Part shown: piece after piece, positions 2,788-30,833 of the stretch | Layout: every line of letters begins with the position of its first letter | Numbering within the stretch: position 1 is the stretch's first letter | Assembly (NCBI RefSeq): GCF_900079115.1 | Contig: NZ_LT549890.1 | Coordinates: 2,070,001 to 2,102,000, forward strand | Length of the DNA: 32,000 nucleotides | Direction of reading: 5' to 3' | DNA from: Saccharolobus solfataricus | Lineage (GTDB): Archaea > Thermoproteota > Thermoprotei_A > Sulfolobales > Sulfolobaceae | Position numbers and translations under genes: made by a program | The notes under the pieces: model-generated | Seen by the model: the letters and a program-made list of their open reading frames with translations, nothing else | What the model was told of the DNA's origin: nothing | Database searches by the model: none

Positions 2788-3864
<1,077 letters not shown>

Positions 3865-3896
3865 CTCTTTTTTACTATCCTTTCTTATTCTACACT

Positions 3897-4694
3897 ATGA
3901 ATTTTATTACATTTGCTGAGAAGTTAGGAATTGATCGGGAAGCTGCGATAAAAGTTTATAGATTGTTTAATGGTGGTTACTTTGAAAGTTTATACTATTC
4001 TAAACCTCCTATTCTCCATAAACTTAGGGAATGGCCTAGGAAATATTTGACAAAAAAACTGATATTAATAAAAAATTTTCAATTAAATCAAGCATTTGAA
4101 GCCCTAATATGGGCAGATATCATAGCAATCTATGGAATGTCTTCAAAATTAATCGATAGGCCTCTTAAATATGGCATTTTGGAGAAAAATATAGAGTACA
4201 TATATGAGGAAATCAAAAAGTATTCTCTTTCCAATAATTTTACTGACTATCCTACAACCTTAAGTCTGGATTTTATTAAGGTGGATTTTTCACCATTCAT
4301 AAAGGACTTAACTAATAAAAGAATGGAGGAGATGAAAGCTAACGATTCAGAAATAATAAATGATATTGCATATGATAGCAAATTGATGGAAGAAATAAAA
4401 ATTAAATATCCTTGGGCAAAGAACGTCAAAAGGGAGAACGCTGTAAGGGCTTTTCAATTATCTGAAAGAGTAAACGAATTCGTAGAGTATATTATACCAT
4501 TCATTTACTATTTGGCAGCATCGAAGACCCTTCATTTTGATTACACTCTTCTAAGTAATACTATTTCAGATACAATAAAACTTGTCGAAGAAGAAGGAAG
4601 TAGAGCAATAAAAGAGCAAGAAATGAGTAGTGAATACCAAAGAAAAGTTAGAGAACTTTACCAACTTATTATTACTACTCTTAACTACTTTTAG
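3897..4694 (+). CDS. Hypothetical protein (helical, no recognised motif)
   Basis: 265-aa ORF with an ATG start 33 nt after the mcr stop. Only a short shadow ORF competes with it. Confidence 0.55.
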   Translation: MNFITFAEKLGIDREAAIKVYRLFNGGYFESLYYSKPPILHKLREWPRKYLTKKLILIKNFQLNQAFEALIWADIIAIYGMSSKLIDRPLKYGILEKNIEYIYEEIKKYSLSNNFTDYPTTLSLDFIKVDFSPFIKDLTNKRMEEMKANDSEIINDIAYDSKLMEEIKIKYPWAKNVKRENAVRAFQLSERVNEFVEYIIPFIYYLAASKTLHFDYTLLSNTISDTIKLVEEEGSRAIKEQEMSSEYQRKVRELYQLIITTLNYF

Positions 4695-4726
4695 GTTTAT
4701 ATACTATTTCGGCATAAAGATAACAC

Positions 4727-5074
4727 GTGACAACAAGAGGAAAAGAACAGCAGAAAAAAAAGAAAAGATATACTGAAAGTATTGCTGCATTTAAAAAAGA
4801 ATTAAAAGCACTAAGCTTTGAACCAATTTATGGGGAGTCCATAAAGGATATAATAGCGAGATTAACGGTGAAAATAGAAGATATTGCAAACCAGTACAAG
4901 TATACAGTGGAATTTCCTGAGAAAGCTGAAATTGAGGCTGAAGGAGACATTTACTATTTCATATATCCTATAACTCTGAAGACAAAGACTGGAAGAAAAA
5001 AAATCTATCTTCATGTCCAATACCTTATGTATGATCAGAACCAATGGGCCGGAATGATAACTGGAGTTAAATAA
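4727..5074 (+). CDS. Hypothetical small basic protein
   Basis: 115-aa ORF with a GTG start and a lysine-rich N-terminus (EQQKKKKRY). Its 3' end overlaps the convergent protease gene by 8 nt. Confidence 0.45.
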   Translation: MTTRGKEQQKKKKRYTESIAAFKKELKALSFEPIYGESIKDIIARLTVKIEDIANQYKYTVEFPEKAEIEAEGDIYYFIYPITLKTKTGRKKIYLHVQYLMYDQNQWAGMITGVK

Positions 5075-9755: not shown

Positions 9756-9763
9756 ATTTTACA

Positions 9764-9781
9764 GTAAATTTCCTACGTTTC
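9764..9781 (+). repeat. ORB-like repeat copy 1 (GTAAATTTCCTACGTTTC)
   Basis: Identical 18-mer to 9826-9843. Its reverse complement GAAACGTAGGAAATTTAC contains the GGAAA core typical of archaeal origin recognition boxes. Confidence 0.6.
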
Positions 9782-9825
9782 TATAACACTTTCGTACCCT
9801 AATCTCTCAATACAATTGTCTCTGT

Positions 9826-9843
9826 GTAAATTTCCTACGTTTC
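9826..9843 (+). repeat. ORB-like repeat copy 2 (GTAAATTTCCTACGTTTC)
   Basis: Perfect 18-bp direct repeat of 9764-9781, 62 bp downstream. Confidence 0.6.
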
Positions 9844-10008
9844 ATCTGAAAATCTAGCTATTAGAGCTTGGTTTAATTATACAAACTCAATATTTTTCTT
9901 TTTTCCTTCCTTTAATGTTTCAGATGAAATTAAGAGAGTGTCTCTTTAAAAACGATAATACTTTATACAAACGTACTACTTTTGGCGGTATATAGGGTAT
10001 TTTTAAGG

Positions 10009-10031
10009 ATGAAATCACAGGAAATTTACTG
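10009..10031 (-). repeat. ORB-like repeat copy 3, inverted orientation, imperfect
   Basis: The plus strand reads ATGAAATCACAGGAAATTTACTG. Its reverse complement CAGTAAATTTCCTGTGATTTCAT shares CAGTAAATTTCCT with copy 1 and then diverges. CACAGGAAA resembles the ORB core I recall from crenarchaeal origins. A degenerate partner, TTAAATTTTTCC, lies at 10045-10056. Confidence 0.5.
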
Positions 10032-10215
10032 CATAACTGGGGAGTTAAATTTTTCCGATAATTATAATATTTCAGAAAAAAGAATTTAAAGTCCAATATT
10101 TGCTTCACTATGGTTACATTACCTTGTAATAAGGAAAAACTATTTTTAGATTCTAGACTTTTAAGTTTCTAACAATTATGAAAAGATTAATAAGTTAATT
10201 CTTGAAGGTAGGTTT

Positions 10216-10592: not shown

Positions 10593-11777
10593 GTGCATGT
10601 GATAAGGGAAACATTGAAAGGTGGTAAGGGTGAAGTTATAAAAAACCCTAAGGTCTTTATCGATCCGTTATCTGTATTTAAGGAGATTCCGTTTAGAGAG
10701 GATATATTAAGGGATGCCGCAATTGCTATTAGGTATTTCGTTAAGAATGAGGTCAAGTTTTCGAACTTATTCCTTGGATTAACCGGTACCGGAAAAACTT
10801 TCGTGAGCAAATATATCTTTAATGAAATTGAGGAGGTGAAGAAAGAGGACGAGGAATATAAGGATGTAAAACAAGCTTATGTTAATTGCAGAGAGGTTGG
10901 TGGAACACCACAAGCTGTATTATCCTCTTTAGCTGGGAAACTAACTGGTTTTTCAGTACCAAAGCATGGTATTAATTTAGGTGAGTATATTGATAAGATA
11001 AAGAATGGCACAAGGAATATAAGAGCAATTATATATCTTGACGAGGTTGACACGTTAGTGAAGAGAAGAGGGGGAGATATAGTTCTTTATCAGCTGCTTA
11101 GATCAGATGCAAATATATCTGTTATAATGATTAGTAATGACATTAATGTTCGTGATTATATGGAGCCCAGAGTTTTATCATCTTTAGGGCCTTCGGTAAT
11201 CTTTAAACCTTACGATGCAGAGCAACTGAAATTTATTCTTTCGAAGTATGCTGAATATGGCCTAATAAAAGGTACCTATGATGACGAAATATTGAGCTAT
11301 ATTGCAGCTATTTCTGCTAAAGAGCACGGTGATGCAAGGAAAGCAGTAAATTTGCTTTTCAGGGCAGCTCAGCTAGCTTCAGGTGGGGGTATTATTAGGA
11401 AGGAGCACGTAGATAAGGCCATTGTGGATTATGAACAAGAGAGGCTTATAGAGGCCGTCAAAGCTCTTCCTTTTCACTATAAATTGGCTTTAAGAAGTCT
11501 GATAGAGTCAGAAGATGTAATGTCTGCTCATAAAATGTATACAGATCTTTGTAATAAATTCAAGCAAAAACCCTTATCGTATAGGAGGTTTTCAGATATC
11601 ATATCAGAATTGGACATGTTTGGGATAGTCAAGATAAGGATAATTAATAGGGGTAGAGCCGGTGGAGTTAAGAAATATGCATTGGTGGAAGATAAGGAGA
11701 AGGTATTAAGAGCGCTTAATGAGACTTTTGAAGATAGTATTAGTATTGGTGATTTTGATGATGTGGGAGAAAATTAA
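10593..11777 (+). CDS. cdc6-3: Orc1/Cdc6 replication initiator, probably the Cdc6-3 (Orc1-3) paralog
   Basis: 394 aa, AAA+ with Walker A GLTGTGKT, Walker B IIYLDEVD, sensor region ISNDINV, the DARKAVNLL lid and a C-terminal winged helix ([12 protein letters not shown]). The sequence matches my memory of S. solfataricus Cdc6-3. Confidence 0.93.
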
Positions 11778-20059: not shown

Positions 20060-21151
20060 TTACGTCTTCCTCATCATTAGCTCTGCTAGCTTATCGTTTA
20101 TATCTAAATAGTTTTCTCTAGCTAAGTTAAATAATAATGCGTATTTCTTTGCATCTTGTGAATTTATCTCCGAAAGTTCATCAGCTAGTTTGTTCAATAA
20201 CGTAACTTCTCTAATACTTTGCATAGCCCAAATATTCAAATATTTAATTGGTGTGAAGTCAGGTTCCCTTTCAGCCAGCACATCTATTCTAACTATTGGT
20301 GACGTTGTATTATATTGGTAATACAGAGAGTATATTGAGAGTGAGTCATTAAACACCTTTTTATATCGATTATAAGCCTTCGAGATTCCCTTAAGATCAT
20401 CCAATATTATCTGATTATTTATTAACGAATCCCAACTTATCCACCCTAGATATACTGGTTTATTAAACTCAGATTTTTCGAGCCTATATTTATACATAAT
20501 ACTAAATATAATATAGTTCTCTCTTGCCTTCATCAGTGCGGGATAATTATTTAAAAACTCCTTGATCAATATTCTATGAGAGAAGTTCTTTACTATTCCC
20601 ACGATTAATTTATTCTTACCCTTTAATCTTCTAAGTACTGTAGAACGATATAGTGCTAACTTATCCAGAGATAAGATATTTTCTATCTCAACATCCTCTT
20701 CATAATATGTTGGTGGATCCACAATAGGTCCATCGATAAATATCACGTCACACTCCTCACACTTCTCTATTAGACTCGTTTCTAAAGTAAGCATAAATAA
20801 AATGGATTTGTTGGATATCACGTTCTTATCGTAGTAATTCTCTATTATCTTGAAATCCTCAGCTATCTCAGATGGGACACTCTTTTTGTCCTTCTTTTTG
20901 CCTAAAATCTTCACAGCTCTAGCTAGGATAAGGGTTACATCACTTAACTCTATTTCATATTTGCTTCCGTCTACTGCACATGCAATGTGCTCAGAATCTA
21001 TAATCTCATCAAGTATTCCTATTTTTAAATCAATGCTATTTGATATTATATCGTCAAAAATTAAGTTAACTGCCATATTTATCTTTCCTCTCTCATTAAC
21101 ATCTTTGCTAGCTAACTCATTTACCTTTTTAATAATCTCATTTGTATTCAA
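20060..21151 (-). CDS. NurA-like nuclease (paralog, not the mre11-rad50 operon copy)
   Basis: 363 aa with a TTG start preceded by GGTGA 4 nt upstream. NurA-type motifs are present: ACAVDGS (Asp about aa 61), LTLETSL (Glu about aa 124), VIFIDGPIVDP (Asp about aa 140) and LIVGIVKNFSH (aa 182-192). Confidence 0.7.
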   Translation of the reverse strand: MNTNEIIKKVNELASKDVNERGKINMAVNLIFDDIISNSIDLKIGILDEIIDSEHIACAVDGSKYEIELSDVTLILARAVKILGKKKDKKSVPSEIAEDFKIIENYYDKNVISNKSILFMLTLETSLIEKCEECDVIFIDGPIVDPPTYYEEDVEIENILSLDKLALYRSTVLRRLKGKNKLIVGIVKNFSHRILIKEFLNNYPALMKARENYIIFSIMYKYRLEKSEFNKPVYLGWISWDSLINNQIILDDLKGISKAYNRYKKVFNDSLSIYSLYYQYNTTSPIVRIDVLAEREPDFTPIKYLNIWAMQSIREVTLLNKLADELSEINSQDAKKYALLFNLARENYLDINDKLAELMMRKT

Positions 21152-21837
21152 ACTTTCACCTTTATAGAAATATTTTTCTCAACAAGCATTTTTATAACCT
21201 TTATAGACTCTTCTAGGTTGTCTCTACTAATCTTGATTTCACCTTTGTCTATTAGTAATATCAATATGCTAATTTCTTTCTCATTTAGATTTATTTTTCT
21301 CAATTCATCCACGATAATCCCATACAACTCATTAAGGTGTTGTTTAGCTTGTATTTCAACTTCATTTAGCTTAGAGAGTGATCTTTCCTTGGGTATACTA
21401 AAAGTTTTTGCGTCTTTCTGAATTTTAAGGAAGTGATACAGTATTTTAGCATATAATATTAGTCTATTATTTATTTCCTCAATGCTCTTGATTTTCTCTT
21501 CTATTATCTTATTTAGGTCTTGTTCTATATCTTTCTCCAGGCTATCTACTTTACTTTTTATTTTATCTATATATCTGATTATCTCTTCAGCCGAGTTGAG
21601 CTTGGTTAGTTTCTCTATATCCGCTTTAACTTCCTCCAGCTTGTCTTCATATTTATTTAATTCGTTTATCTTTTTCTCTAAGGTCCTTAATTTCTTTAGA
21701 GACTCCTTTAGACTTTGTTTAGATTTTTCTAATTCCTCTATTGTCTCGGTAATTTTTCTATCCTCTTCTCTTAGTCTTTCTACATCCAGATTCTGTTTAT
21801 ATTGGGTTAGTCTTTCCATAAATTCAGCTAAATCCAT
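21148..21837 (-). CDS. Coiled-coil protein, function unknown
   Basis: 229 aa, almost entirely heptad-like K/E/L-rich sequence. The start overlaps the upstream gene by 14 nt and the stop overlaps the NurA-like start (TTGA). Confidence 0.6.
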   Translation of the reverse strand: MDLAEFMERLTQYKQNLDVERLREEDRKITETIEELEKSKQSLKESLKKLRTLEKKINELNKYEDKLEEVKADIEKLTKLNSAEEIIRYIDKIKSKVDSLEKDIEQDLNKIIEEKIKSIEEINNRLILYAKILYHFLKIQKDAKTFSIPKERSLSKLNEVEIQAKQHLNELYGIIVDELRKINLNEKEISILILLIDKGEIKISRDNLEESIKVIKMLVEKNISIKVKV

Positions 21838-24800
21838 ACTCTTCTAGAACCTCCTTTATTTCTTGAATTAATTGTGTTATTTTTTGTGTATTTCTCTCAA
21901 CGTTTTCTCTCAACTTAGGTAATTCTGGACTTATCTTTTCTAGATCATTTACAATCATCTCAATATTATTTAATTGGATACCGACTTTACCTAATGATGC
22001 GATTTCCTCAATTATCGTATCTTTTAACTCATCTCCAGATATTGATACGCCATTTAGTATCTCTTTCAGCAATTTGAATAATATGAAATAAAGGTTTGAG
22101 TTATCTTCAACGTGTATAGTAGCAAGTAAGTAATCGAGATATCGTTTAAACGACTCTGTTTGTCCCCTCTCATTTATCTCTTGAATTTTCCTCACTAACT
22201 TGTCCATTTGCATTTTGAAGTTGTCTTTAAGTTCATGAATTATCTCATATACCTTCTCTATTTCCTCAATTTTCTCGTTTATCTTTACATGCCTCTTGGC
22301 TTTCTCTACAACCTCCAATTTTTTGTAGATTTCCTCAACGATCTTGTCTGTCTCAATCACTGATTCTTCGGTCTTTCTTAATAATTCCAAATATATATTC
22401 GATAAATATAGATAATCATAACATAGCCTTATGTCTTTATTTTCAGTGCAAGATTTCTCATAAGCTTCTATGACCTCTCTCATTTCCTCAAGGCTTCTTA
22501 TTGCAGCTCCCCTCTTTTTAGCTGTTATGAAGTACCCATAGGTCGAGTATGGATTATCTAGTTTTTCCTTTATTTTTCTTATTTGCTCGTCTATTTTCAG
22601 ATAAATTACATCTTTATTTAAATATTTAGCAATTTCGCCACTAACTATTGACGAGTAAACTAAGAAGTCTAAGGTGGGATTTTGTCCAATTTTTTTATCG
22701 GGGCTAAAAATTTGATACGCAAAGACTAAGGGATTATTTTTATTATCTTTTCTTTTGTTATCTTGTGGACTTACATAATACATTATATAATTAAATACAA
22801 CCTCCTCTGCTTCTTGCTTGTATTTTTGCCTAATAAGACCCGCAAACAGCTTAGCGAATGAGGATAACGATTCTCCCGCTAGGTCTTCGAAATCTATGTA
22901 ATTGGATCTAATCTTTATTATACGATTACCATAGAAGTAAGTAATAATGTCATCAACAAACGTGTTGGATGTTTCTATATCTTCTAAATGGAACTGCTTA
23001 CTTCCATACATTCTAAATTTCTCATTAATTATCTCATTTACTTTCTCGAATAACTCATTAGCATTTACCATTTTTATTGATGGGTAAAATATTATCCAAT
23101 TGAATGATTGTATTAATCTCTTATTTCTAGGTATGGGAAGTTGGTTCAAGTTAAGATTATCTCTTATTTTTAGCAGTAGGGAGGATATCGAATTTTTCAG
23201 ATCTCCTAGTCTTAGTTCTATGGAATCAAGCCTAATTCTACTTTGTCCGTAGATTTTAGAGAATAGTAGATATAGCAACTGTCTTTTCTTTGGTGTGGTC
23301 ATTTTTAGTTCGATCAACGGTATTGATAGTCCGTCTAGAGTTTTGGATAGTTCTTCCTTCCTTATTTGAGGCTCTATTAGAATAAGACCGTGAATTAGCT
23401 CGTCACTTTCGTTGATCTCTTTTATTAAGTTCTTAATTTCATCCTCGTTAGCTGGATTTGCCAAAATAATAGTAATTTTCTTATTATCCATTATAAGTTT
23501 TAAAAACCTTATGTAGTCTTTGCTTCTATTTACACTATCTACCTTTATTCCTAGTACTTCCATTAAATATTCTAATGATTCAAGTTCCTTCTCTCTATCT
23601 GTAATATACGTATTCACGAACTGTAAGGCTTTATCTCTAATTTCTCTTGACTTAAACTCTACTATTAATCCTCCTATATTAGTATTCGCTATGCTCTCAA
23701 AAAAGCTCCAGGATATTGCATATGCATCAGTTTTACCGAATAGTGATAGTTTTTTTACATTCTCCTTTATTTTACTTATATCTATGCTTTCATGGAGTAT
23801 AGTTTCTATATTGTCGGATATAAATACATGAAAATCGTCTTGATAATATGTTAAAAGAAAGTCCTCAACGTATTCTTGACCTTTAGGGAACATCTCAATC
23901 CATTTTAGATATGGTATCAGTACCCCTTTTATTACATGACCTTCTAATTTCTTTATGACTAGTTTTTCGTCAGTAAATATTCTGCTCATTAAGACTTTGT
24001 ATAATTTACTTAACTCTTGGGAGTCCATTTCGTTCTCTAATTTTGTTAACATATCTAGTCTAACGGTCTCTCCTTCTGAGTTTAGATTAATTCCCTTATC
24101 CGATCTAGCCAGTTCGTTGAAAATTCTATCTACGTTAGGAAGATTATCGCATACTATATCGTTGAAGAACTTTACGTATTTTCTTCTTTCTTGATCTATT
24201 ACCCAGTAAGGCAAATCCATGTACTGTAGTATCTTTAAGTCATTTATGTTAGCCATATTTAGCATACACTTTAACATTAATAGAAACTCTAATTTAGATG
24301 GATTTTCTATACTAACTTTTCTTATTCTTTCTAGAAGTGAAGGGTAAGTTTCTGAAAATAAGTTATAAATTATGCCTCCAGTTCCAAATATTTTAGAATA
24401 TGCGCTTGGGGTCATGGAAAGGTATATTATTGAATTTCCAGTTGAATTAGCTAATTCCTTTACCTTGCTCCAAAAGTCCTTTATCTCGTTTTGATACTCT
24501 GCGAAGTAATCTACAGAACTTTCCACTTCATCAATAAGGTACACATTATTTTTGAACGTTAACAAATCTTCGGTTCGGCTTAAAAGTTCTACAAAGGGTA
24601 TCTTTATTACATTAATATTTCTATTTTTTGCATATTCCTCAATGATGTCAAGGAACGTACTTTTTCCTTGTCCCCAATCGCCGACAAGCGATATTATTTC
24701 TGGGGATTGTTTAATCTTAGATATCCTGTCTATCTCATCCTTAACTTGCTTGAAAAATCTTAATCTATTTATGTATAATGAGTTCTCTGTAATGCAAGAG

Positions 24801-24862
24801 AAAATTTGATAGATATAAGAGGAGTCAGATGCTGTTTCGCTTATTCTCTTAGAACAACTCAC
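21824..24862 (-). CDS. Large KAP-like P-loop NTPase with a long helical/coiled-coil C-terminal region
   Basis: 1012 aa with a GTG start preceded by GGTGA 4 nt upstream. Walker A is LVGDWGQGKSTFLDII (aa 59-74; the G-x-W-G-x-GKS form is typical of KAP NTPases) and Walker B is NVYLIDEVES (aa 105-114). The last 200 or so aa are predicted coiled coil. No TM insertion is seen. Confidence 0.65.
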   Translation of the reverse strand: MSCSKRISETASDSSYIYQIFSCITENSLYINRLRFFKQVKDEIDRISKIKQSPEIISLVGDWGQGKSTFLDIIEEYAKNRNINVIKIPFVELLSRTEDLLTFKNNVYLIDEVESSVDYFAEYQNEIKDFWSKVKELANSTGNSIIYLSMTPSAYSKIFGTGGIIYNLFSETYPSLLERIRKVSIENPSKLEFLLMLKCMLNMANINDLKILQYMDLPYWVIDQERRKYVKFFNDIVCDNLPNVDRIFNELARSDKGINLNSEGETVRLDMLTKLENEMDSQELSKLYKVLMSRIFTDEKLVIKKLEGHVIKGVLIPYLKWIEMFPKGQEYVEDFLLTYYQDDFHVFISDNIETILHESIDISKIKENVKKLSLFGKTDAYAISWSFFESIANTNIGGLIVEFKSREIRDKALQFVNTYITDREKELESLEYLMEVLGIKVDSVNRSKDYIRFLKLIMDNKKITIILANPANEDEIKNLIKEINESDELIHGLILIEPQIRKEELSKTLDGLSIPLIELKMTTPKKRQLLYLLFSKIYGQSRIRLDSIELRLGDLKNSISSLLLKIRDNLNLNQLPIPRNKRLIQSFNWIIFYPSIKMVNANELFEKVNEIINEKFRMYGSKQFHLEDIETSNTFVDDIITYFYGNRIIKIRSNYIDFEDLAGESLSSFAKLFAGLIRQKYKQEAEEVVFNYIMYYVSPQDNKRKDNKNNPLVFAYQIFSPDKKIGQNPTLDFLVYSSIVSGEIAKYLNKDVIYLKIDEQIRKIKEKLDNPYSTYGYFITAKKRGAAIRSLEEMREVIEAYEKSCTENKDIRLCYDYLYLSNIYLELLRKTEESVIETDKIVEEIYKKLEVVEKAKRHVKINEKIEEIEKVYEIIHELKDNFKMQMDKLVRKIQEINERGQTESFKRYLDYLLATIHVEDNSNLYFILFKLLKEILNGVSISGDELKDTIIEEIASLGKVGIQLNNIEMIVNDLEKISPELPKLRENVERNTQKITQLIQEIKEVLEEYGFS

Positions 24863-24866
24863 ATTT

Positions 24867-26480
24867 TCACCCTTCGCTTAAAATTAAATCAATTCTTTCC
24901 ACGTTTCCAGCGTATGATCCTAACCTAGGATCCCATGGGATTCTTACCAATGCCGGACTTTTCATTATTGACATAAGTCCACTTACTATTACGTATCCAG
25001 TATCTAATGATGTCAAATTCTTAGTTAATGATTCGGGTAAACCACCTGAAGCGGACATAACATATCTTACGTCTTCATGATATATTCTATGAAAGAAAAA
25101 GGTGTTAATCATGGATAATACGTATTTATCTATAAATGCTGGTCTTTGACTTACCAGAATTAGAGATGCCCCAAATTTTCTTCCTTGAGTAGCTAGTGTT
25201 ACCAATACGTCTTTTGTCAAGTTAGCGTTTACTGGATAATCAATAGAAGGTATGTAGTTCTGTGCCTCTTCTATCACAAATCCCAAAAACCTTTGATTAC
25301 CGTTGTATTTGGATCTCGTAAGATAATTAAATATTAATCTAGTTATGTAGCTTACGATGAGTTGTTTCGTAAGGACATCTACTCCTGGTGAACCATCAGC
25401 CGAGAAGTCTATTATTGCTAAACCTCTATTCCTCCAAATCACTTCTAATGTGTTCTCAGTCAAAGATGCAGAAGAGTTGACAAGTTGTAGTCTGCTAATT
25501 ACTTTGTTTTTGAATATTTCTAATGCGCTAGCAATTCCCCTAGCAGTACCCGTTGTGATTCCTATATCCTTATTTTGAGCCATCGTAAGAATCTCATTCC
25601 TTAGGGTCTCAATTCCTATTGCACTACCTAAAAGGGTATTATATTCCTTGCTCTCATGGTTTGCTAAAACTTGCTCTAGGAAATTTAGTTGCAGTGTGTT
25701 ATATGAAGCCTCACCGTATTTTAGAGACATAATAAATTCTGATAATTCTCTAGGCGTGAATATGGACAAATCTATTGTAAGCTTAATGTCGTTTTGCTCC
25801 TTAGGATCCTTCAATATATACCTCTTTATCCAGCCTCTTCCTTTAGATACTATGTCTAGATTTGTCGAAGCTAAATCTATGTAATCCCCATTCGCATCAA
25901 TTACAATCATCGGTAAGGCCGTGATCTTGTCTCCTATTTTTATGTTAGATAAAAGCTTAATTAAGTATCTCATGTTGTAGCTTTTTCCACTTCCAGTCTC
26001 TCCAAAAACTCCCATGTGCATTGTTATTGCATTAAGGTCTAACAATAATGGTATTTCAGAACCTGCTAAGGCTCCGTACTCAATTAATCCTTTTTTGTTT
26101 TTTATTCCATAAAAGGAAAGTAGCTCTTTTTCACTCTTTATTTCTGGTAATCTTCTTACGAAAGAGCCAGGTTTAGGGGTTGTATTATGGTCATATTTTT
26201 TTATTAAGTGCAAAGTTGCTTTTATTATTGTATTCATATCGAGAATTTCATATATCGAAGGTTCTTTTAATATTGACTTAGCTATCTCCCCCTTTTCGTC
26301 AAAGAACTCATTCAGAAATTCGTAATTTTCAACCCTGACTAGTGAAAGCTTCTCGGAATCATCAACTAATAACAATTGTCCTACGCTTATTTCCTCATCA
26401 GCTCTAATTAGTCCTTGCATTTCATTTGCTTCGCTCTTCTGCAGTACTATTCCTATAATCTCTCCCCTTTCCATCACCAT
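24867..26480 (-). CDS. HerA-like (FtsK/HerA superfamily) hexameric ATPase/translocase
   Basis: 537 aa. The N-terminus looks like a HAS barrel (GEIIGIVLQ...VGQLLLVDD...LVRVENYE). Walker A is GVFGETGSGKS (aa 157-167), Walker B is FLGFVIEEAQNYIP (aa 398-411), and the arginine-finger block is GRKFGASLILVSQRP (aa 433-447). Confidence 0.85.
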   Translation of the reverse strand: MVMERGEIIGIVLQKSEANEMQGLIRADEEISVGQLLLVDDSEKLSLVRVENYEFLNEFFDEKGEIAKSILKEPSIYEILDMNTIIKATLHLIKKYDHNTTPKPGSFVRRLPEIKSEKELLSFYGIKNKKGLIEYGALAGSEIPLLLDLNAITMHMGVFGETGSGKSYNMRYLIKLLSNIKIGDKITALPMIVIDANGDYIDLASTNLDIVSKGRGWIKRYILKDPKEQNDIKLTIDLSIFTPRELSEFIMSLKYGEASYNTLQLNFLEQVLANHESKEYNTLLGSAIGIETLRNEILTMAQNKDIGITTGTARGIASALEIFKNKVISRLQLVNSSASLTENTLEVIWRNRGLAIIDFSADGSPGVDVLTKQLIVSYITRLIFNYLTRSKYNGNQRFLGFVIEEAQNYIPSIDYPVNANLTKDVLVTLATQGRKFGASLILVSQRPAFIDKYVLSMINTFFFHRIYHEDVRYVMSASGGLPESLTKNLTSLDTGYVIVSGLMSIMKSPALVRIPWDPRLGSYAGNVERIDLILSEG

Positions 26481-26502: not shown

Positions 26503-27093
26503 TTAAACGATTAAGCTTCTGGGATTAGATAATGAAAGGTTTCTTATTACATTGGCTATAGTTTTGAAGGCCAATCTACCATATGGGTAAATTGTTATTT
26601 TTAAATGTGAGATTTCAGCTGCACCTTTCACTATTTCATAGTGATGCCTAGGGAGTATACCTATTAATCTCTCGTGTAATTTACTAATTTTTATAAGGGG
26701 CTTCGTTAATAACTCAACGAACTCTTCTTTTTCCTCTTTGCTCATAAGCGCTGGGGGGTAATCGTAATTGTTAAAAGGATAGCATTCCTCTAACTCTCTA
26801 GGCACTAATAGCATTGGTTCGGATACTGAATATACTTGTACTTTCTCCTCTAAATTATATTTCTGTAATATGGCGTAGGCTATTTTGTGTGTTGGTGATG
26901 ACGAGTAAGGTTTAACTACAGTACAAGGTAACAACAACGCAATCTCCTTATTTGAACTCCAGTTCTCTAGAAAGTAGCGATGCCATCTCATCACCACTGG
27001 GTGTCTGAACAGATCGTCAGTATTATCTCTTTTCGATATTCTAGTAAAGTCAGGCTTAAGGTATTCATATAGTTGTTCACATGCAGAGCTCAT
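26503..27093 (-). CDS. Stand-alone ArcS-type (DUF5591-like) domain protein carrying the archaeosine-synthase signature motif
   Basis: 196 aa. LLLPCTVVKPYSSSPTHK (aa 53-70, nt 26887-26928 for the core) fits the ArcS signature P-C-x3-K-P-Y-x2-S-x2-H as I recall it. The start overlaps the TGT-like gene by 17 nt and is preceded by GGAGGAGGT. Confidence 0.7.
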   Translation of the reverse strand: MSSACEQLYEYLKPDFTRISKRDNTDDLFRHPVVMRWHRYFLENWSSNKEIALLLPCTVVKPYSSSPTHKIAYAILQKYNLEEKVQVYSVSEPMLLVPRELEECYPFNNYDYPPALMSKEEKEEFVELLTKPLIKISKLHERLIGILPRHHYEIVKGAAEISHLKITIYPYGRLAFKTIANVIRNLSLSNPRSLIV

Positions 27094-27949
27094 TTACCTC
27101 CTCCTCTATCTCATCTTCCGCGAAAGTATCTAGTTTTTTAGAATATCTTATCAAAGGATTGTTGCTTTCATATTCTGAATTCAAGAGCACCCAAGCGTTG
27201 ATTAGACTTCTGTCTATCCAATTGTCGAATCTAATTTGAAATGGGTAGTGAGTTTTATCTAAAAATGATAATAAAATCTCTAGTTCCTCTTCGCTCGCTC
27301 TTTTAGTGCCCCACACTATTTTCCTATTTCCTACGTATCTTTCTCCTTTACCGGGTATAATAACCATACCATGTATGCCCTTAACTCTGTAGGTCGAAGT
27401 ATCCACGCTGTCGGCGTTGAAGTAGACTTTTCTCATGAAAGGTGATCCTGCACCTAAGACGTGTATTTTCCCCTTCCATAATTTCCTAACTAAATAATAT
27501 ATTGCAACCGCAAGTTTTTTGTTACCGCTCTTGTTTAGGGTAGGAGGGACGATCCCACCAAAAGCTACTAGGTCCGTATATTGGGAGTAGAAGTCTATGG
27601 ATTTCTTTATTGACTCAGGATCATAAGCGTGTATGACTGGTACTATTTTCTTATCGAAAACTGTGTATAAGTACTCGAAGTATTTGTAATTCAATTCTGA
27701 TGGCTTATGGCAAGGAATTGATGGTATATCAAGGCTCATATATTGTGTGGCATCTAGTATTTTATACTTCTCAACTACTTTTTCTATTTCAACTTTTATT
27801 CCTCTAACCATTATTTGGTATCCTCCAGAGTCTACCCATGTCTCATTTTCCCAAGATGGTCTATCCCAGTTTAATTGGTTAATCATTAATGGTTGTTTAA
27901 ACGTCCAAACTGGGATTTTCAGATCAGGTATGCCTAGTATTATCTTCAT
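27077..27949 (-). CDS. Minimal TGT-family (tRNA-guanine transglycosylase / DpdA-like) TIM-barrel protein
   Basis: 290 aa. TGT blocks are present: WVDSGGYQIM (catalytic Asp about aa 40), YMSLDIP, LVAFGGIVPP, IHVLGAGSP and NADSVDTSTYR (second Asp region, aa 180-185). There is no C-x-C-x2-C...H zinc cluster (only 2 Cys in the protein) and no C-terminal PUA-type extension. Confidence 0.7.
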   Translation of the reverse strand: MKIILGIPDLKIPVWTFKQPLMINQLNWDRPSWENETWVDSGGYQIMVRGIKVEIEKVVEKYKILDATQYMSLDIPSIPCHKPSELNYKYFEYLYTVFDKKIVPVIHAYDPESIKKSIDFYSQYTDLVAFGGIVPPTLNKSGNKKLAVAIYYLVRKLWKGKIHVLGAGSPFMRKVYFNADSVDTSTYRVKGIHGMVIIPGKGERYVGNRKIVWGTKRASEEELEILLSFLDKTHYPFQIRFDNWIDRSLINAWVLLNSEYESNNPLIRYSKKLDTFAEDEIEEEVNELCM

Positions 27950-27987: not shown

Positions 27988-27997
27988 ATTATATAAT
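27988..27997 (-). promoter_or_regulatory. Candidate TATA box for the six-gene operon (palindromic ATTATATAAT; could also serve the divergent gene)
   Basis: An AT palindrome centred about 44 nt upstream of the ATG at 27949. This implies a short leader containing AGGA. Confidence 0.3.
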
Positions 27998-28179
27998 AAT
28001 ACTACTTGTTTTCTTACGTTCTCGCTAATGGAAAATGCAATTTCGTATATTACATCAGTGAAACAACCCTTCATCACGCTTCAGTTAAGGTTGGTTTCCT
28101 CATATATTGTAATCATTGTTTTCAGTTGCTATTATCACTTACGCTCCCCTGCCTGTTAGATATTAAGCATCTAGTTATT

Positions 28180-28860
28180 GTGTCCAAAGGAGCAGTAATC
28201 CTTATATTGATTACATTATTTGTATATACTCTGAATATTATTAGTAATGCGTACTTAGTTAATGTAAAGATTTTAAGTCCTTTTCCGATCACGTTAATGT
28301 TTTCTGACTCACAAGGTGTTAAACTGGTTTCTTCCAATCAAACGTTAAATGTCAGCAGCTCAAATTTAAGGATTCAAGTGTTTGTTCTATCCCCCTACTC
28401 CTACTGTATATTTATCAACGGAAATAAGACCGACGAATTTAACGTTACTTTGTCTAATTACTCTCAATTTAACCTTACGGTAACAGTTATTCCTAAGTAT
28501 GCTTTTTTGAAAGTTAACGTTGTTGGTAAGGGTACAGCTTATATTGAATTAGATAATGGTAGCATAATTGCAGTAAGGAACTCTTCTGTAATTAGAGTGT
28601 ATAATGGTTCCAGTGTTCTTCTTGAGGCTAACGGTGATCTTATTAATTGGTCAAATGGGGCTAATACTATGACGCTTTGGTATACAGTTGGTGGCAACTC
28701 GACAATTACGGCATTTTTTGGTAATTCTAGTATTCTTCCAAAGTCTGGTACTGTTAAACCTACAGTAAACTACACTGAAGTTGGGCTTAGTTTATTTGCG
28801 GTAGGATTTTTCATATTATATAAAATATATTCTAGAAAAGACCAAGATACTAATGTTTGA
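28180..28860 (+). CDS. Secreted or membrane glycoprotein, function unknown; start uncertain
   Basis: The ORF-track entry starts at a TTG at 28006, which gives an implausible N-terminus. The GTG at 28180 gives a signal-anchor-like VSKGAVILILITLFV. The protein has many N-x-S/T sequons and a C-terminal TM helix (LSLFAVGFFILYKIY). Confidence 0.4.
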   Translation: MSKGAVILILITLFVYTLNIISNAYLVNVKILSPFPITLMFSDSQGVKLVSSNQTLNVSSSNLRIQVFVLSPYSYCIFINGNKTDEFNVTLSNYSQFNLTVTVIPKYAFLKVNVVGKGTAYIELDNGSIIAVRNSSVIRVYNGSSVLLEANGDLINWSNGANTMTLWYTVGGNSTITAFFGNSSILPKSGTVKPTVNYTEVGLSLFAVGFFILYKIYSRKDQDTNV

Positions 28861-28901
28861 TAACAACTTTTAAATGTGTACTCGTTACTAAAAATATTAG
28901 A

Positions 28902-30833
28902 ATGAATGAGAGATTAATGAATTCTCAAAGTGGATATTTAAGGAAGGCAGTAAATCATCCAATAAATTGGTACACTTGGTCTAATGATGTATTTGAAATT
29001 GCGAAGAAGGAGAATAAGCCAATACTTATTGATGTAGGCGCTGCTTGGTGCCATTGGTGCAATGTTATGGATGAGGATACCTATTCAAATCCAGAAATAG
29101 CTAAGATAGTTAACGAGAATTTTATTCCCGTAAAGGTTGATCGTGATGAAATGCCCGATTTGGACAGGTTACTTCAAAACGCAGCTATGGCAATAACAGG
29201 TGAATCTGGATGGCCTTTAACTATATTTATGACACCAGAGGGAAAGGTCTTCTTTGGTGGCACTTACTTTCCTCCAGAGGATAGATATGGACGAATAGGC
29301 TTCAAGAGATTACTATTGGAGATTTTGAGAATATGGAGAGAAGATAGAAACCAAATACTATTATCTTCAATAGACCCCAATATGTTGATTCCTAAAAATA
29401 CTGGTGGAGTTCTAAATTCAAGCGTTTTAGATGATGCGTTTTCCTTTATAACATCCTATTTTGATATCGAGTATGGTGGATTAGGGTTTGGTGCCAAATT
29501 TCCCCATCCTTTTGTCGACTTGTTATTCCTTAACTACAGTGCTACTAGAGGAGATGATTTAGGTAAGAAACTAGGTCTATTCACTTTAAGGAAAATGTAC
29601 TATGGTGGTATTTTTGATCAAGTTGGTGGAGGATTTCATAGATATACCGTTGATAGAGAGTGGAAGTTACCTCATTTTGAGAAACTACTTATAGATAATG
29701 CTGAATTAATCTACGATTACTTTACTTATTATATAGCGACTAATGATATAGAAATTCTTGACGCCTTACGAAATTCAGTAGATTTCGTTTTAAGAGAATT
29801 ATACATAGATGGGAAAGGCTTTGCTAATAGTTTAGATGCAGATAGTGAAGGTATGGAAGGTAAGTATTACACGTGGACTGAGGATGAGCTAAAAGATTCG
29901 TTAGGAAATGATTACGGTATCGCTATAAGGGTATTTGACTTGAAGAATACAGTGGAGGTTGAAGGTAGGAAAGTTCTATTGAGAACTATTGAACTTAGGG
30001 AGCTGTGTAAAGCAACTGGTTTACAAGTGAATGATATGATAAAGAAGATAAGTGAGATAAGAACTAAACTATTGGCATATAGAAAGCAAAATAGAAAAAT
30101 GCCATATAGAGATGATAATACGTACACTTATTCTAACGCAAAGCTGGCAGAATCCATGTTGTATTCCTCATTAATTTTAAACAAGAGCATTGAGGAGGCT
30201 AAGCTTGTTCTGAGTAAGTTAGGAAAAACTGTTAGTAGAAGATTAGATGGCGGAAAGGCGGGATTACCAGAAGACTATGCTGCAGCACTTTTAGCAACTA
30301 TTTCCGCATACGAGGTATTAGGCGAAGAAAGGTATTATGATTTGGCAATTGAACTCGGTAGAAATATTGGAGTCATTAAGCCTAATAATTTCACTGACAT
30401 GCCTAATGAGTCTGCAAATTCAATGTACATTAGGGCGTTATTCAAGTTGTCGCTATTATCTGATGAGTTTAAAGTTGATGAGGAGAAAATAAAACCTTTA
30501 ATTCCCTCTTTAACTGCAGAAAACTCTCAATTTATTGCTGGCATAGTAAATTCTATCTCTAGTTACATTAGTGGAATGGCTCATGTTGTGGTGGTTGATG
30601 AAAAGGATGGATTAGCTGAGAGGTTACATAAAGTTGCGTTACTTACCTATTATCCCTTTAAACTAGTTGAAAAGGTGGATGATAGCAGAACTGACTATGT
30701 TAGCTCAGTAATAAGGGCTATGATTAAATATAATGTGGGAAGGAGTAGAGCATATGTGTGTATAGGCAATACGTGCAGTATGCCAGTAAGTGAAGAGGAA
30801 AAGATTAAACAATTACTTAAAACTAAGCTTTGA
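28902..30833 (+). CDS. DUF255/YyaL-type thioredoxin-domain protein with an (alpha/alpha)6-barrel C-terminal region
   Basis: An N-terminal thioredoxin-like block HPINWYTWSNDVFEIAKKENKPILIDVGAAWCHWCNVMDEDTY is followed by GGFHRYTVDREWKLPHFEKLLIDNA, typical of this family. The ATG at 28902 is preferred over the TTG at 28857. Confidence 0.85.
   Translation: MNERLMNSQSGYLRKAVNHPINWYTWSNDVFEIAKKENKPILIDVGAAWCHWCNVMDEDTYSNPEIAKIVNENFIPVKVDRDEMPDLDRLLQNAAMAITGESGWPLTIFMTPEGKVFFGGTYFPPEDRYGRIGFKRLLLEILRIWREDRNQILLSSIDPNMLIPKNTGGVLNSSVLDDAFSFITSYFDIEYGGLGFGAKFPHPFVDLLFLNYSATRGDDLGKKLGLFTLRKMYYGGIFDQVGGGFHRYTVDREWKLPHFEKLLIDNAELIYDYFTYYIATNDIEILDALRNSVDFVLRELYIDGKGFANSLDADSEGMEGKYYTWTEDELKDSLGNDYGIAIRVFDLKNTVEVEGRKVLLRTIELRELCKATGLQVNDMIKKISEIRTKLLAYRKQNRKMPYRDDNTYTYSNAKLAESMLYSSLILNKSIEEAKLVLSKLGKTVSRRLDGGKAGLPEDYAAALLATISAYEVLGEERYYDLAIELGRNIGVIKPNNFTDMPNESANSMYIRALFKLSLLSDEFKVDEEKIKPLIPSLTAENSQFIAGIVNSISSYISGMAHVVVVDEKDGLAERLHKVALLTYYPFKLVEKVDDSRTDYVSSVIRAMIKYNVGRSRAYVCIGNTCSMPVSEEEKIKQLLKTKL

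Follow-up and report, generated by a model that had tools for sequence, protein, structure and literature searches.

A zinc-less TGT-fold protein and its ArcS2-type partner beside HerA and NurA paralogues in Saccharolobus solfataricus: candidate genes for DNA modification

What does a transglycosylase act on when it retains the catalytic residues of its superfamily while lacking the zinc site and the RNA-binding domain of its tRNA-modifying relatives? The question is raised by two minus-strand open reading frames (ORFs) of Saccharolobus solfataricus, located at positions 26503 to 27949 of a 32,000-nucleotide stretch of contig NZ_LT549890.1 (positions 2,070,001 to 2,102,000; G+C about 33%), and this whole stretch is referred to here as the window. 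The original prediction, made from the letters of the DNA, recognized in these ORFs a TGT barrel and an ArcS-signature domain and reasoned that the substrate might be DNA instead of tRNA. Modification of DNA with 7-deazaguanines is known in bacteria (Dpd), in phages, and in archaeal viruses; we know of no chromosomal archaeal system of this kind, and no literature was found that links DpdA or TGT proteins to NurA or to Saccharolobus chromosomes. The comparisons described here indicate that the barrel protein probably acts on DNA, not tRNA, and they leave about an even chance that the pair forms the modifying part of a Dpd-like DNA modification/restriction system, encoded on the chromosomes of Sulfolobales and provided with a HerA/NurA effector.

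The two proteins of the pair

The features of the pair on which the argument depends are the following.

27077 to 27949, minus strand: zinc-less single-domain TGT-fold transglycosylase of 290 amino acids (the barrel protein), orthologue of STSV2_15 and of SIRV2 ORF310
27830 to 27832, minus strand: codon of catalytic residue D40 of the barrel protein
27728 to 27730, minus strand: codon of catalytic residue D74
27629 to 27631, minus strand: codon of catalytic residue H107
27401 to 27403, minus strand: codon of catalytic residue D183
26503 to 27093, minus strand: ArcS2-type protein of 196 amino acids, DUF5591/ArcS C1 core only (PF17884; 61% identical to STSV2_16)
27077 to 27108, minus strand: overlap region of the two ORFs, as read from the sequence

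Both sequence blocks that hold the catalytic aspartates of base-exchanging TGTs are present in the barrel protein, as had been claimed from its translation: DSGGYQ at residues 40 to 45 (nucleotides 27815-27832) and D-S-V-D at residues 180 to 183 (27401-27412). In an alignment of 35 sequences of the barrel family, D40, D74, H107, and D183 are all invariant. Profile alignment places D40 and D183 in line with the catalytic Asp95 and Asp249 of the Pyrococcus horikoshii arcTGT, and the four residues together are the counterparts of the Asp95/Asp130/His181/Asp256 set of DpdA, for which active-site roles have been described (PMC10164549). The partial alignment to DpdA (7ui4) spans the histidine and the second aspartate, with a profile E value of only 2e-3.

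Recognition of the protein by existing models is poor. Pfam does not recognize it, with no TGT match even at E = 10; its match to the NCBIfam arcTGT equivalog TIGR00432 is weak (E 5e-4), reaching 18.6 of the 350 bits required; NF041059, the curated model of DpdA, gives no match at E ≤ 1; and a single-sequence search of the PDB returned only noise. Structure prediction, which the original prediction had put forward as a check, did find the TGT fold. The AlphaFold2 model, built with 35 homologues as input, has a pLDDT of 91 and a pTM of 0.89 and ends in an entirely helical C terminus, and its Foldseek matches lie in the TGT superfamily, including arcTGT (1iq8, 3e-9), bacterial TGTs (about 1e-6), DpdA (7ui4, 3e-6), and Cap10 (9ntn, 6e-6 to 1e-5). 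Judged from this model, the matches seem to express no clear preference among TGT subfamilies. In comparisons with viral protein models, the rudiviral orthologue superposes with a TM-score of 0.88 and is followed by many phage proteins labeled as queuine tRNA-ribosyltransferases, those of nt-1 and phiST among them.

The loss of the structural zinc site is complete. The barrel protein has exactly two cysteines (C80 and C289), the number originally reported, and neither is conserved; the CxCxxC...H motif is absent, with all four ligand positions substituted. In profile-profile alignment to a zinc-bearing sister family (probability 100%), KTHYPF stands in place of the CxCPxC block, and the isoleucine of LINAWV in place of the histidine ligand. 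Among 1.84 billion cluster representatives, a profile search yielded 1642 relatives, in which two tiers can be distinguished. The approximately 30 best clusters contain proteins of 260-390 amino acids that have DSGG[FY]Q and lack CxCxxC, and a second tier of 300-430 amino acids carries the zinc motif CxCPxC...H; no long arcTGT occurs among the best 150 of the 1642. According to cluster look-ups, members of the zinc-bearing sister group and of the more remote clusters without zinc are nearly all metagenome proteins. As the zinc-bearing tier is closest to arcTGT (2e-50 to 1iq8, versus about 1e-18 to DpdA 7ui4 and to bacterial/eukaryotic TGTs), the barrel protein appears to be a derived, zinc-less offshoot of short proteins resembling the arcTGT catalytic domain. 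Profile comparisons place it on a separate zinc-less branch, outside the bacterial DpdA clade and, in agreement with the original expectation, outside bona fide tRNA arcTGT. Both TGTs and the DpdA family are reported to conserve the zinc site (PMC10164549), so that its full loss here represents a real departure. This is the sole branch of the TGT superfamily encountered in the analysis that has discarded zinc, and it should be useful for learning what the zinc of TGTs does.

The second ORF was likewise correctly assigned. It matches PF17884 (DUF5591) at 2e-19 and 70.2 bits, against a gathering cut-off of 26, and carries the motif PC-x3-KPY-x2-S-x2-H at residues 56 to 69 (nucleotides 26887-26928), in which P56-C57-x3-K61-P62-Y63-x2-S66-x-T68-H69 are invariant in 17 homologues. 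Its scores against models of canonical ArcS are far below the cut-offs (77 bits for NF040592, cut-off 440; 61 for NF053620, cut-off 600), and it covers just positions 261-409 of the ArcS model, i.e. the C1 part; it also matches the DUF5591 half of AF0587 (PDB 2q07). The PF17884 domain, the motif, the presence of the core domain alone, and an adjoining DpdA-type gene are the traits by which ArcS2 proteins are defined, and all are found here. Domain searches of both ORFs for a PUA domain, which the original prediction had judged to be missing, found none. Its statement that most Crenarchaeota lack canonical ArcS also matches the literature (PMC5485725).

The two ORFs share 17 nucleotides (27077-27093) in different frames, as first listed, and a purine-rich run, GAGGAGGAGGT, lies at 27096-27106, immediately 5′ of the ArcS2 ATG. 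On the evidence of this sequence arrangement, overlap and purine-rich run together suggest translational coupling of the two genes. The description of the pair as "split" holds in the sense that there are two separate ORFs; it does not hold as a disrupted gene, for the two are separate in every genome seen. A frameshift or pseudogene reading of the overlap was rejected on the same grounds, as the genes of all genomes and viruses are separate, in some cases with a divergent or rearranged layout. Where a short DUF5591 gene is present it is near the barrel gene, whether overlapping downstream, upstream, divergent, or one gene off, and the species named for the short DUF5591 protein are almost the same as those named for the barrel protein. 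An additional candidate, a RaSEA-like radical SAM partner for ArcS2, was also rejected: the sole nearby possibility, about 8 kb upstream and beyond the window, is an AF0577-type SPASM radical SAM gene.

Viral orthologues, operon, and distribution

Much of what can be said about function comes from viruses. The barrel protein is encoded in 35 archaeal-virus records. It is 70% identical to the proteins of STSV1, STSV2, and STSV4 (full length versus STSV1/2) and 35-40% identical to those of SIRV1-11, with a range of 28-40% when the SIRV, Beppu, and Stygiolobus rod-shaped viruses are taken together. In STSV2, the barrel gene STSV2_15 is followed by the overlapping STSV2_16, which encodes a protein of 185 amino acids with 61% identity to the DUF5591 protein of the window, so that gene order is the same; all SIRV rudiviruses have the barrel and not ArcS2. 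The proteins of the pair match phrog_887 and phrog_34505, of which the second appears to be the ArcS2 family of STSV. In Hutinet et al. 2023 (PMC10516641), STSV2_15 and STSV2_16 are named DpdA and ArcS2, and an earlier list of DpdA-encoding viruses included 12 Ligamenvirales and 2 Bicaudaviridae (Hutinet et al. 2019, PMC6884629). STSV2 DNA contains 2′-deoxy-7-carboxy-7-deazaguanosine (dCDG) at 0.04% of G, and DpdA2 and ArcS2 of phage nt-1 together produce dG+ in plasmid DNA (PMC10516641). The kind of pair found in the window is thus already known, and the idea that it acts on DNA has published precedent for its viral orthologues.

The same study left open why STSV2 has the two genes at all, the source of its base, the reason for dCDG, and what the mark guards against, and it reported the STSV2 host to be without 7-deazaguanine in its tRNA and without proteins of the Q/G+ pathway (PMC10516641). 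The genome of this host, Sulfolobus tengchongensis (CP146016.1, 1133917-1152801), may not yet have been public when that work appeared. It contains the complete six-gene cluster to which the pair belongs in the window, with a barrel protein 68% identical to STSV2_15 and 80% identical to that of the window. In a neighbor-joining tree, computed without support values and only indicative, STSV2 falls inside a cellular clade of Saccharolobus, Sulfolobus, and Aramenus proteins, and the rudiviral copies are sister to the Sulfolobales proteins; the nested position of STSV2 suggests capture by the virus from its host.

Transport genes are found beside the barrel in some viruses and organisms. In SIRV2, ORF399 (2793-3992), a 399-amino acid permease of phrog_8289, directly precedes the barrel gene ORF310 (4001-4933), and Thermoproteus/Thermoproteaceae loci have an ABC ATPase and a second conserved gene, possibly its permease, after the barrel. 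These transporters may serve import or salvage of the inserted base, which would fit hosts and viruses without a preQ0 pathway; no transport gene for the base is present within the window. Rudivirus DNA was also seen in assemblies of bacterial type strains (Planomonospora alba, Streptomyces gamaensis, Paenochrobactrum glaciei, and Nocardioides koreensis). The P. alba JCM 9373 contig NZ_BAAAUT010000071.1 (31,951 bp), for example, matches SIRV3 with 99.8% identity across 93% of 14 kb. These sequences are almost certainly contamination, which explains the NCBI label "MULTISPECIES ... [Bacteria]" on the rudiviral TGT.

In the window, the pair opens a minus-strand operon of six genes in the order TGT, ArcS2, HerA paralogue, 1012-amino acid AAA+ protein, 229-amino acid coiled-coil protein, and NurA paralogue, with successive spacings of -17, +22, +4, -14, and -4 nucleotides. 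Its remaining features are these.

27989 to 28000, minus strand: TATA-like A/T-rich box ATTATTATATAA, 40-51 nucleotides 5′ of the TGT start codon, recognized by its letters only
24867 to 26480, minus strand: paralogue of the HerA-family hexameric translocases, 537 amino acids (DUF87, 3e-37), Walker A GETGSGKS
21824 to 24862, minus strand: AAA+ protein of 1012 amino acids, Walker A GQGKST, Walker B LIDEVE
21148 to 21837, minus strand: coiled-coil protein of 229 amino acids with a weak N-terminal ArsR-type helix-turn-helix signal, overlapping its neighbors by 14 and 4 nucleotides
20060 to 21151, minus strand: paralogue of the NurA-domain nucleases, 363 amino acids (NurA, 3e-17), last gene of the operon

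The ATTATTATATAA box is, with low confidence, a putative promoter of the operon. The HerA protein scores 98.7 bits against the repair equivalog HerA_Thermprot, for which the cut-off is 800, and no Mre11 or Rad50 gene neighbors the HerA and NurA genes of the window. In the model of the 1012-amino acid protein (pLDDT 84.5), the N-terminal 250 or so residues resemble AAA+ proteins of the ORC/Cdc6/Hda/RFC type, and the remaining 750 or so, helical and coiled-coil, have no recognizable match; comparison with BrxC and KAP gives only weak signals (E 8e-3 and 3e-4). This protein is confined to Sulfolobales and Conexivisphaera-like contigs.

Elsewhere in the window, two plus-strand genes diverge from the operon, one (28006-28860) encoding a 284-amino acid protein without a family match and the other (28857-30833) a 658-amino acid DUF255/thioredoxin-like protein of the DsbH type. 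These two keep their place beside the operon in Saccharolobus, S. tengchongensis, Sulfuracidifex, Acidianus, and Aramenus, and a functional link is not evident. Further away, an Orc1/Cdc6 gene (10593-11777, 394 amino acids) is preceded by a repeat-bearing intergenic region (9757-10036) in which an 18-nucleotide element, GTAAATTTCCTACGTTTC, occurs twice in direct and once in inverted orientation; judged by these repeats, the region, some 9 kb away from the operon, probably represents an origin of replication carrying ORB-type boxes.

Homologues of the barrel are widely distributed. In Sulfolobales they are found in Saccharolobus, Sulfolobus tengchongensis, S. caldissimus, Ca. Aramenus, Sulfurisphaera, Acidianus, Sulfuracidifex, and Stygiolobus, and elsewhere in Conexivisphaera, Ignisphaera and other Desulfurococcales, Pyrobaculum, Thermoproteus, Caldivirga, and Njordarchaeota. 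The genome-contig scan for this distribution used a single peptide pattern, which missed S. solfataricus itself, and is no census. An identical barrel protein in the same gene order is present on another S. solfataricus chromosome (CP033235.1, at about 8.6-29.5 kb), and the same six-gene cluster occurs in S. tengchongensis, Sulfuracidifex, Acidianus hospitalis, and several metagenome-assembled genomes (MAGs) of Sulfolobaceae. S. acidocaldarius, Metallosphaera, and S. tokodaii are not named among the 120 best barrel matches, which extend down to 1e-45 and cover over a dozen further species of Sulfolobales.

Linkage to DNA-processing genes recurs in other arrangements. Within 7 kb of the barrel gene in 51 distinct cellular loci, a HerA-family gene is found in 19, ArcS2 in 18, and NurA in 11. 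Gene order is ArcS2-TGT-...-HerA-1012-amino acid protein-NurA in Conexivisphaera, TGT-ArcS2-NurA-HerA in a Desulfurococcales MAG, HerA-TGT in Thermoproteaceae, TGT/HerA in Caldivirga, TGT-...-HerA-like-NurA in Thermoproteus, and ArcS2-x-TGT-NurA in Stygiolobus; the linkage extends to Njordarchaeota. The species lists of the barrel, ArcS2, and the 1012-amino acid protein nearly coincide. In Sulfurisphaera javensis, HerA, the 1012-amino acid protein, the coiled-coil protein, and NurA form an operon of their own and the TGT/ArcS2 pair is kept elsewhere, an arrangement expected for separable modification and effector modules. Two Desulfurococcales contigs have giant P-loop/coiled-coil proteins beside the barrel, for which hhalign comparison with the 1012-amino acid protein gave probabilities of 27% (Walker A only) and 3%, so that homology is not claimed. 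A contig labeled "Thermogutta sp.," a planctomycete MAG (NZ_JBAMME010000175.1), carries an archaeal ArcS2-TGT-HerA-1012-amino acid protein cluster whose barrel groups with Conexivisphaera, and it is probably mis-binned. The pair as a widespread chromosomal trait of Sulfolobales and other Thermoproteota, the STSV2 host included, appears to be undescribed in the literature searched, as do its systematic linkage to HerA, giant AAA+, and NurA proteins and the clade-wide loss of the TGT zinc site.

Possible functions of the module

In the proposed mechanism, in which DNA as the substrate in this host, the kind of base inserted, the association of the two proteins, and restriction by the four downstream genes are all inferred, the barrel protein would be a DNA-guanine transglycosylase, a functional analogue of DpdA derived from the arcTGT catalytic domain, that swaps selected guanines of double-stranded DNA for a 7-deazaguanine base (preQ0, CDG, or the G+ base). 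D183 would act as nucleophile and D40 as general acid/base in the double displacement common to TGTs and DpdA (PMC10164549). The co-translated ArcS2 protein probably docks on the barrel, rebuilding a core of catalytic domain plus C1 without the tRNA-binding C2 and PUA domains; such docking is thought probable because the genes appear coupled and because C1 follows the barrel in arcTGT and ArcS. ArcS2 would then convert the inserted nitrile base to its final form, dG+ or a related derivative. The base could come from the archaeosine pathway of the cell or from salvage, and a GAT-QueC enzyme, which S. solfataricus is said to possess, would provide it with preQ0 or G+ base. HerA, the giant AAA+ protein, the coiled-coil/helix-turn-helix protein, and NurA would constitute an ATP-driven sensor and effector that loads onto, translocates along, and degrades unmarked DNA, and one of the ATPases of the operon might supply DpdB-like energy for base insertion. 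Viruses of these hosts would have acquired the same writer genes as camouflage for their own DNA, with both genes present in STSV1/2 and the barrel in rudiviruses. This fuller picture, of a first archaeal chromosomal 7-deazaguanine mark of self and non-self that barrel and ArcS2 write, whose absence exposes DNA to HerA, the giant AAA+ protein, and NurA, and whose writers viruses of two unrelated families (Bicaudaviridae and Rudiviridae) stole so as to be taken for self, is proposed tentatively, at somewhat less than even probability.

Several observations weigh against a modification/restriction system. PADLOC gave no match for the barrel, ArcS2, or NurA and no Dpd match, and neither a DpdB or DpdC homologue nor a preQ0-synthesis gene was found within the window. 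By profile comparison the barrel lineage is nearer to arcTGT than to bacterial DpdA, and the mark in STSV2 is both scarce and dCDG instead of the expected dG+ (PMC10516641). In approximately 20 Ignisphaera-type loci and in Pyrobaculum the barrel occurs without ArcS2, HerA, or NurA and is surrounded by housekeeping genes. The conserved neighborhood of the Ignisphaera-type genes, with a 594-amino acid radical SAM/Zn-ribbon protein and an AAA ATPase, and a ribonucleotide reductase on the other side, is that of a clade in which the role of the barrel may differ from its role in Sulfolobales. Moreover, the six-gene cluster keeps a syntenic chromosomal position in three genera, as a housekeeping locus would and unlike a mobile defense island, and the barrel tree roughly tracks taxonomy, in keeping with vertical inheritance.

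These last features also favor an explanation in which the 7-deazaguanine mark serves genome maintenance and is not a restriction label, for instance by protecting guanine against heat and low pH, by marking DNA for HerA/NurA end resection or replication restart, or in DNA exchange of the Ced/Ted type, with the viral copies simply conferring general resistance to host nucleases. A stable location about 9 kb from an Orc1/Cdc6 gene, a taxonomy-like phylogeny, and the lack of a match to known defense models all speak for such a mark; HerA and NurA are known classically for end resection, and in Thermoproteales genes resembling HerA occur together with loci for DNA import (PMC9905601). The HerA and NurA of the operon are, however, divergent paralogues (98.7 of 800 bits for HerA) without Mre11 or Rad50 neighbors; a giant AAA+ protein with HerA and a nuclease resembles architectures proposed for "capture" of invaders; the cluster is patchy within Sulfolobales, with no S. 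acidocaldarius or Metallosphaera among the named matches; and an arms race best fits the capture of modification genes by two unrelated virus families. A maintenance function is accordingly regarded as unlikely. That the pair is a minimal tRNA set, in which a PUA-less arcTGT inserts preQ0 at G15 of tRNA, a minimal ArcS completes archaeosine, and the linkage to HerA and NurA is incidental, is still harder to credit. For it speak the identity of both the nearest solved structure and the nearest curated model as arcTGT, the intact ArcS motif, the activity on tRNA retained by split and PUA-deleted arcTGTs (PMC4770233), the acceptance by T. kodakarensis ArcS of substrates down to the preQ0 nucleotide (PMC11298593), and the labeling of some family members as tRNA ribosyltransferases by JGI and UniRef. 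Yet the tRNA-binding domains and the structural zinc are all gone, the 18.6 bits of the barrel are far from the arcTGT cut-off, and most if not all tRNAs contain G+15 in S. acidocaldarius (PMC7668247), a species without a homologue among the 120 best matches, whereas the STSV2 host, reportedly without tRNA 7-deazaguanine, has the cluster intact. The pair or the barrel is also found in viruses that themselves have no tRNA genes, and maintenance of the HerA/NurA linkage across orders would be hard to explain. These arguments against a role in tRNA are suggestive, not conclusive. They agree with the original proposal of a non-tRNA substrate, such as DNA, with which viral orthology, the DNA-handling operon, the low arcTGT score, and the absence of long arcTGTs among the 150 best relatives also agree.

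Two other explanations carry very little weight. The two modules might be independent neighbors, or the pair an inactive relic of captured viral or ancestral genes, as the unlinked modules of Sulfurisphaera and Aramenus and the solitary barrels of Ignisphaera and Pyrobaculum could suggest. This is very doubtful given that catalytic residues and ArcS motif are invariant down to 31-36% identity, that the ORFs are intact in all genomes, and that linkage to HerA has arisen anew, with the genes in other orders and with other HerA/NurA subfamilies. The least probable explanation considered is that the barrel attaches a 7-deazaguanine, or some other base, to a small molecule or a protein and not to nucleic acid, thereby priming or regulating a HerA/AAA+/NurA effector. 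One role for which defense systems have recruited the TGT fold is the deazaguanylation of proteins (Cap10, type IV CBASS), the Foldseek match to Cap10 about equals that to DpdA, and the barrel shares its operon with putative effector proteins. The operon has no QueC-like partner of the Cap9/QatC type, however, and a D/D/H/D active site of the nucleic acid-acting type is fully kept; the viral orthologue is associated with modified DNA, and rudiviruses have the barrel without any putative target protein.

If a chromosomal modification and restriction system is the correct explanation, the presence and source of deazaguanine in STSV2 DNA would be explained, and, as its host carries the same pair, the virus would be copying the mark of the host itself. 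Should the defense function prove wrong, a conserved partnership of TGT, HerA, and NurA in Thermoproteota would still have been defined. As S. islandicus and S. solfataricus are genetically tractable and SIRV2 and STSV2 can be cultivated, the proposal is directly testable.

Comparison with known systems

The closest counterpart is the viral DpdA/ArcS2 of STSV and rudiviruses, with which the pair of the window shares protein sizes, the zinc-less active-site pattern, and (in STSV2) the overlapping gene order. The viral pair lacks HerA, AAA+, coiled-coil, and NurA genes, whereas the pair of the window is chromosomal and is followed by them. Published work treats the pair as a trait of the virus in a host without the pathway; the host genome nevertheless carries it.

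Bacterial Dpd (DpdA/DpdB/DpdC with DpdD-K, as in Salmonella Montevideo; PDB 7ui4) has the same Asp/Asp/His/Asp active site and likewise combines a second enzyme that tailors preQ0 with ATPases or helicase-type proteins and a nuclease. Here, ArcS2 stands in place of DpdC, and HerA, NurA, and AAA+ stand in place of DpdD-K; no ParB-like DpdB, DUF328 DpdC, or DpdD-K protein was found among the six genes or in the window. DpdA proteins, about 410 amino acids long in bacteria, have a CXCX2CX22H zinc site and the insertion Ins8, in contrast to a barrel of 290 amino acids without zinc ligands.

With arcTGT (TIGR00432; 1iq8), the barrel shares the TIM barrel and the catalytic aspartate pair, and the two proteins of the window together correspond to its core of catalytic domain and C1. 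An arcTGT has C1, C2, and PUA (C3) domains and zinc, whereas the barrel is about half as long and zinc-less, with a partner that has only the C1-like DUF5591 domain. Canonical ArcS has the architecture Nt(TGT-like)-C1-C2-PUA, which the 196-amino acid protein lacks. Unlike both enzymes, the pair is found among DNA-processing genes.

The BRC system (PMC12839542, NAR 2026), composed of PglZ, BrxC-like DUF6079, STAND NTPase, DUF4007, HerA/FtsK, GNAT, and TGT proteins, has been proposed as a defense system that unites TGT, HerA, and a BrxC-like AAA+ protein in a 7-deazaguanine self-mark and HerA-driven capture of invader DNA. A TGT-family enzyme, a HerA translocase, and a large AAA+ ATPase of the ORC/Cdc6 type are common to BRC and the operon. 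PglZ, STAND, DUF4007, and GNAT were not detected among the six genes, and the system of the window differs in its NurA nuclease, its ArcS2, its zinc-less barrel, and its restriction to Thermoproteota. The repair operon mre11-rad50-herA-nurA draws on the same two protein families, HerA and NurA; in the window their partners are the barrel, ArcS2, and the AAA+ protein, and the paralogues fall well below the repair equivalog thresholds. As the operon fits neither arcTGT, canonical ArcS, bacterial Dpd, BRC, nor repair HerA-NurA, it is best interpreted as a candidate Dpd-like, HerA-anchored variant of the DNA modification-restriction systems.

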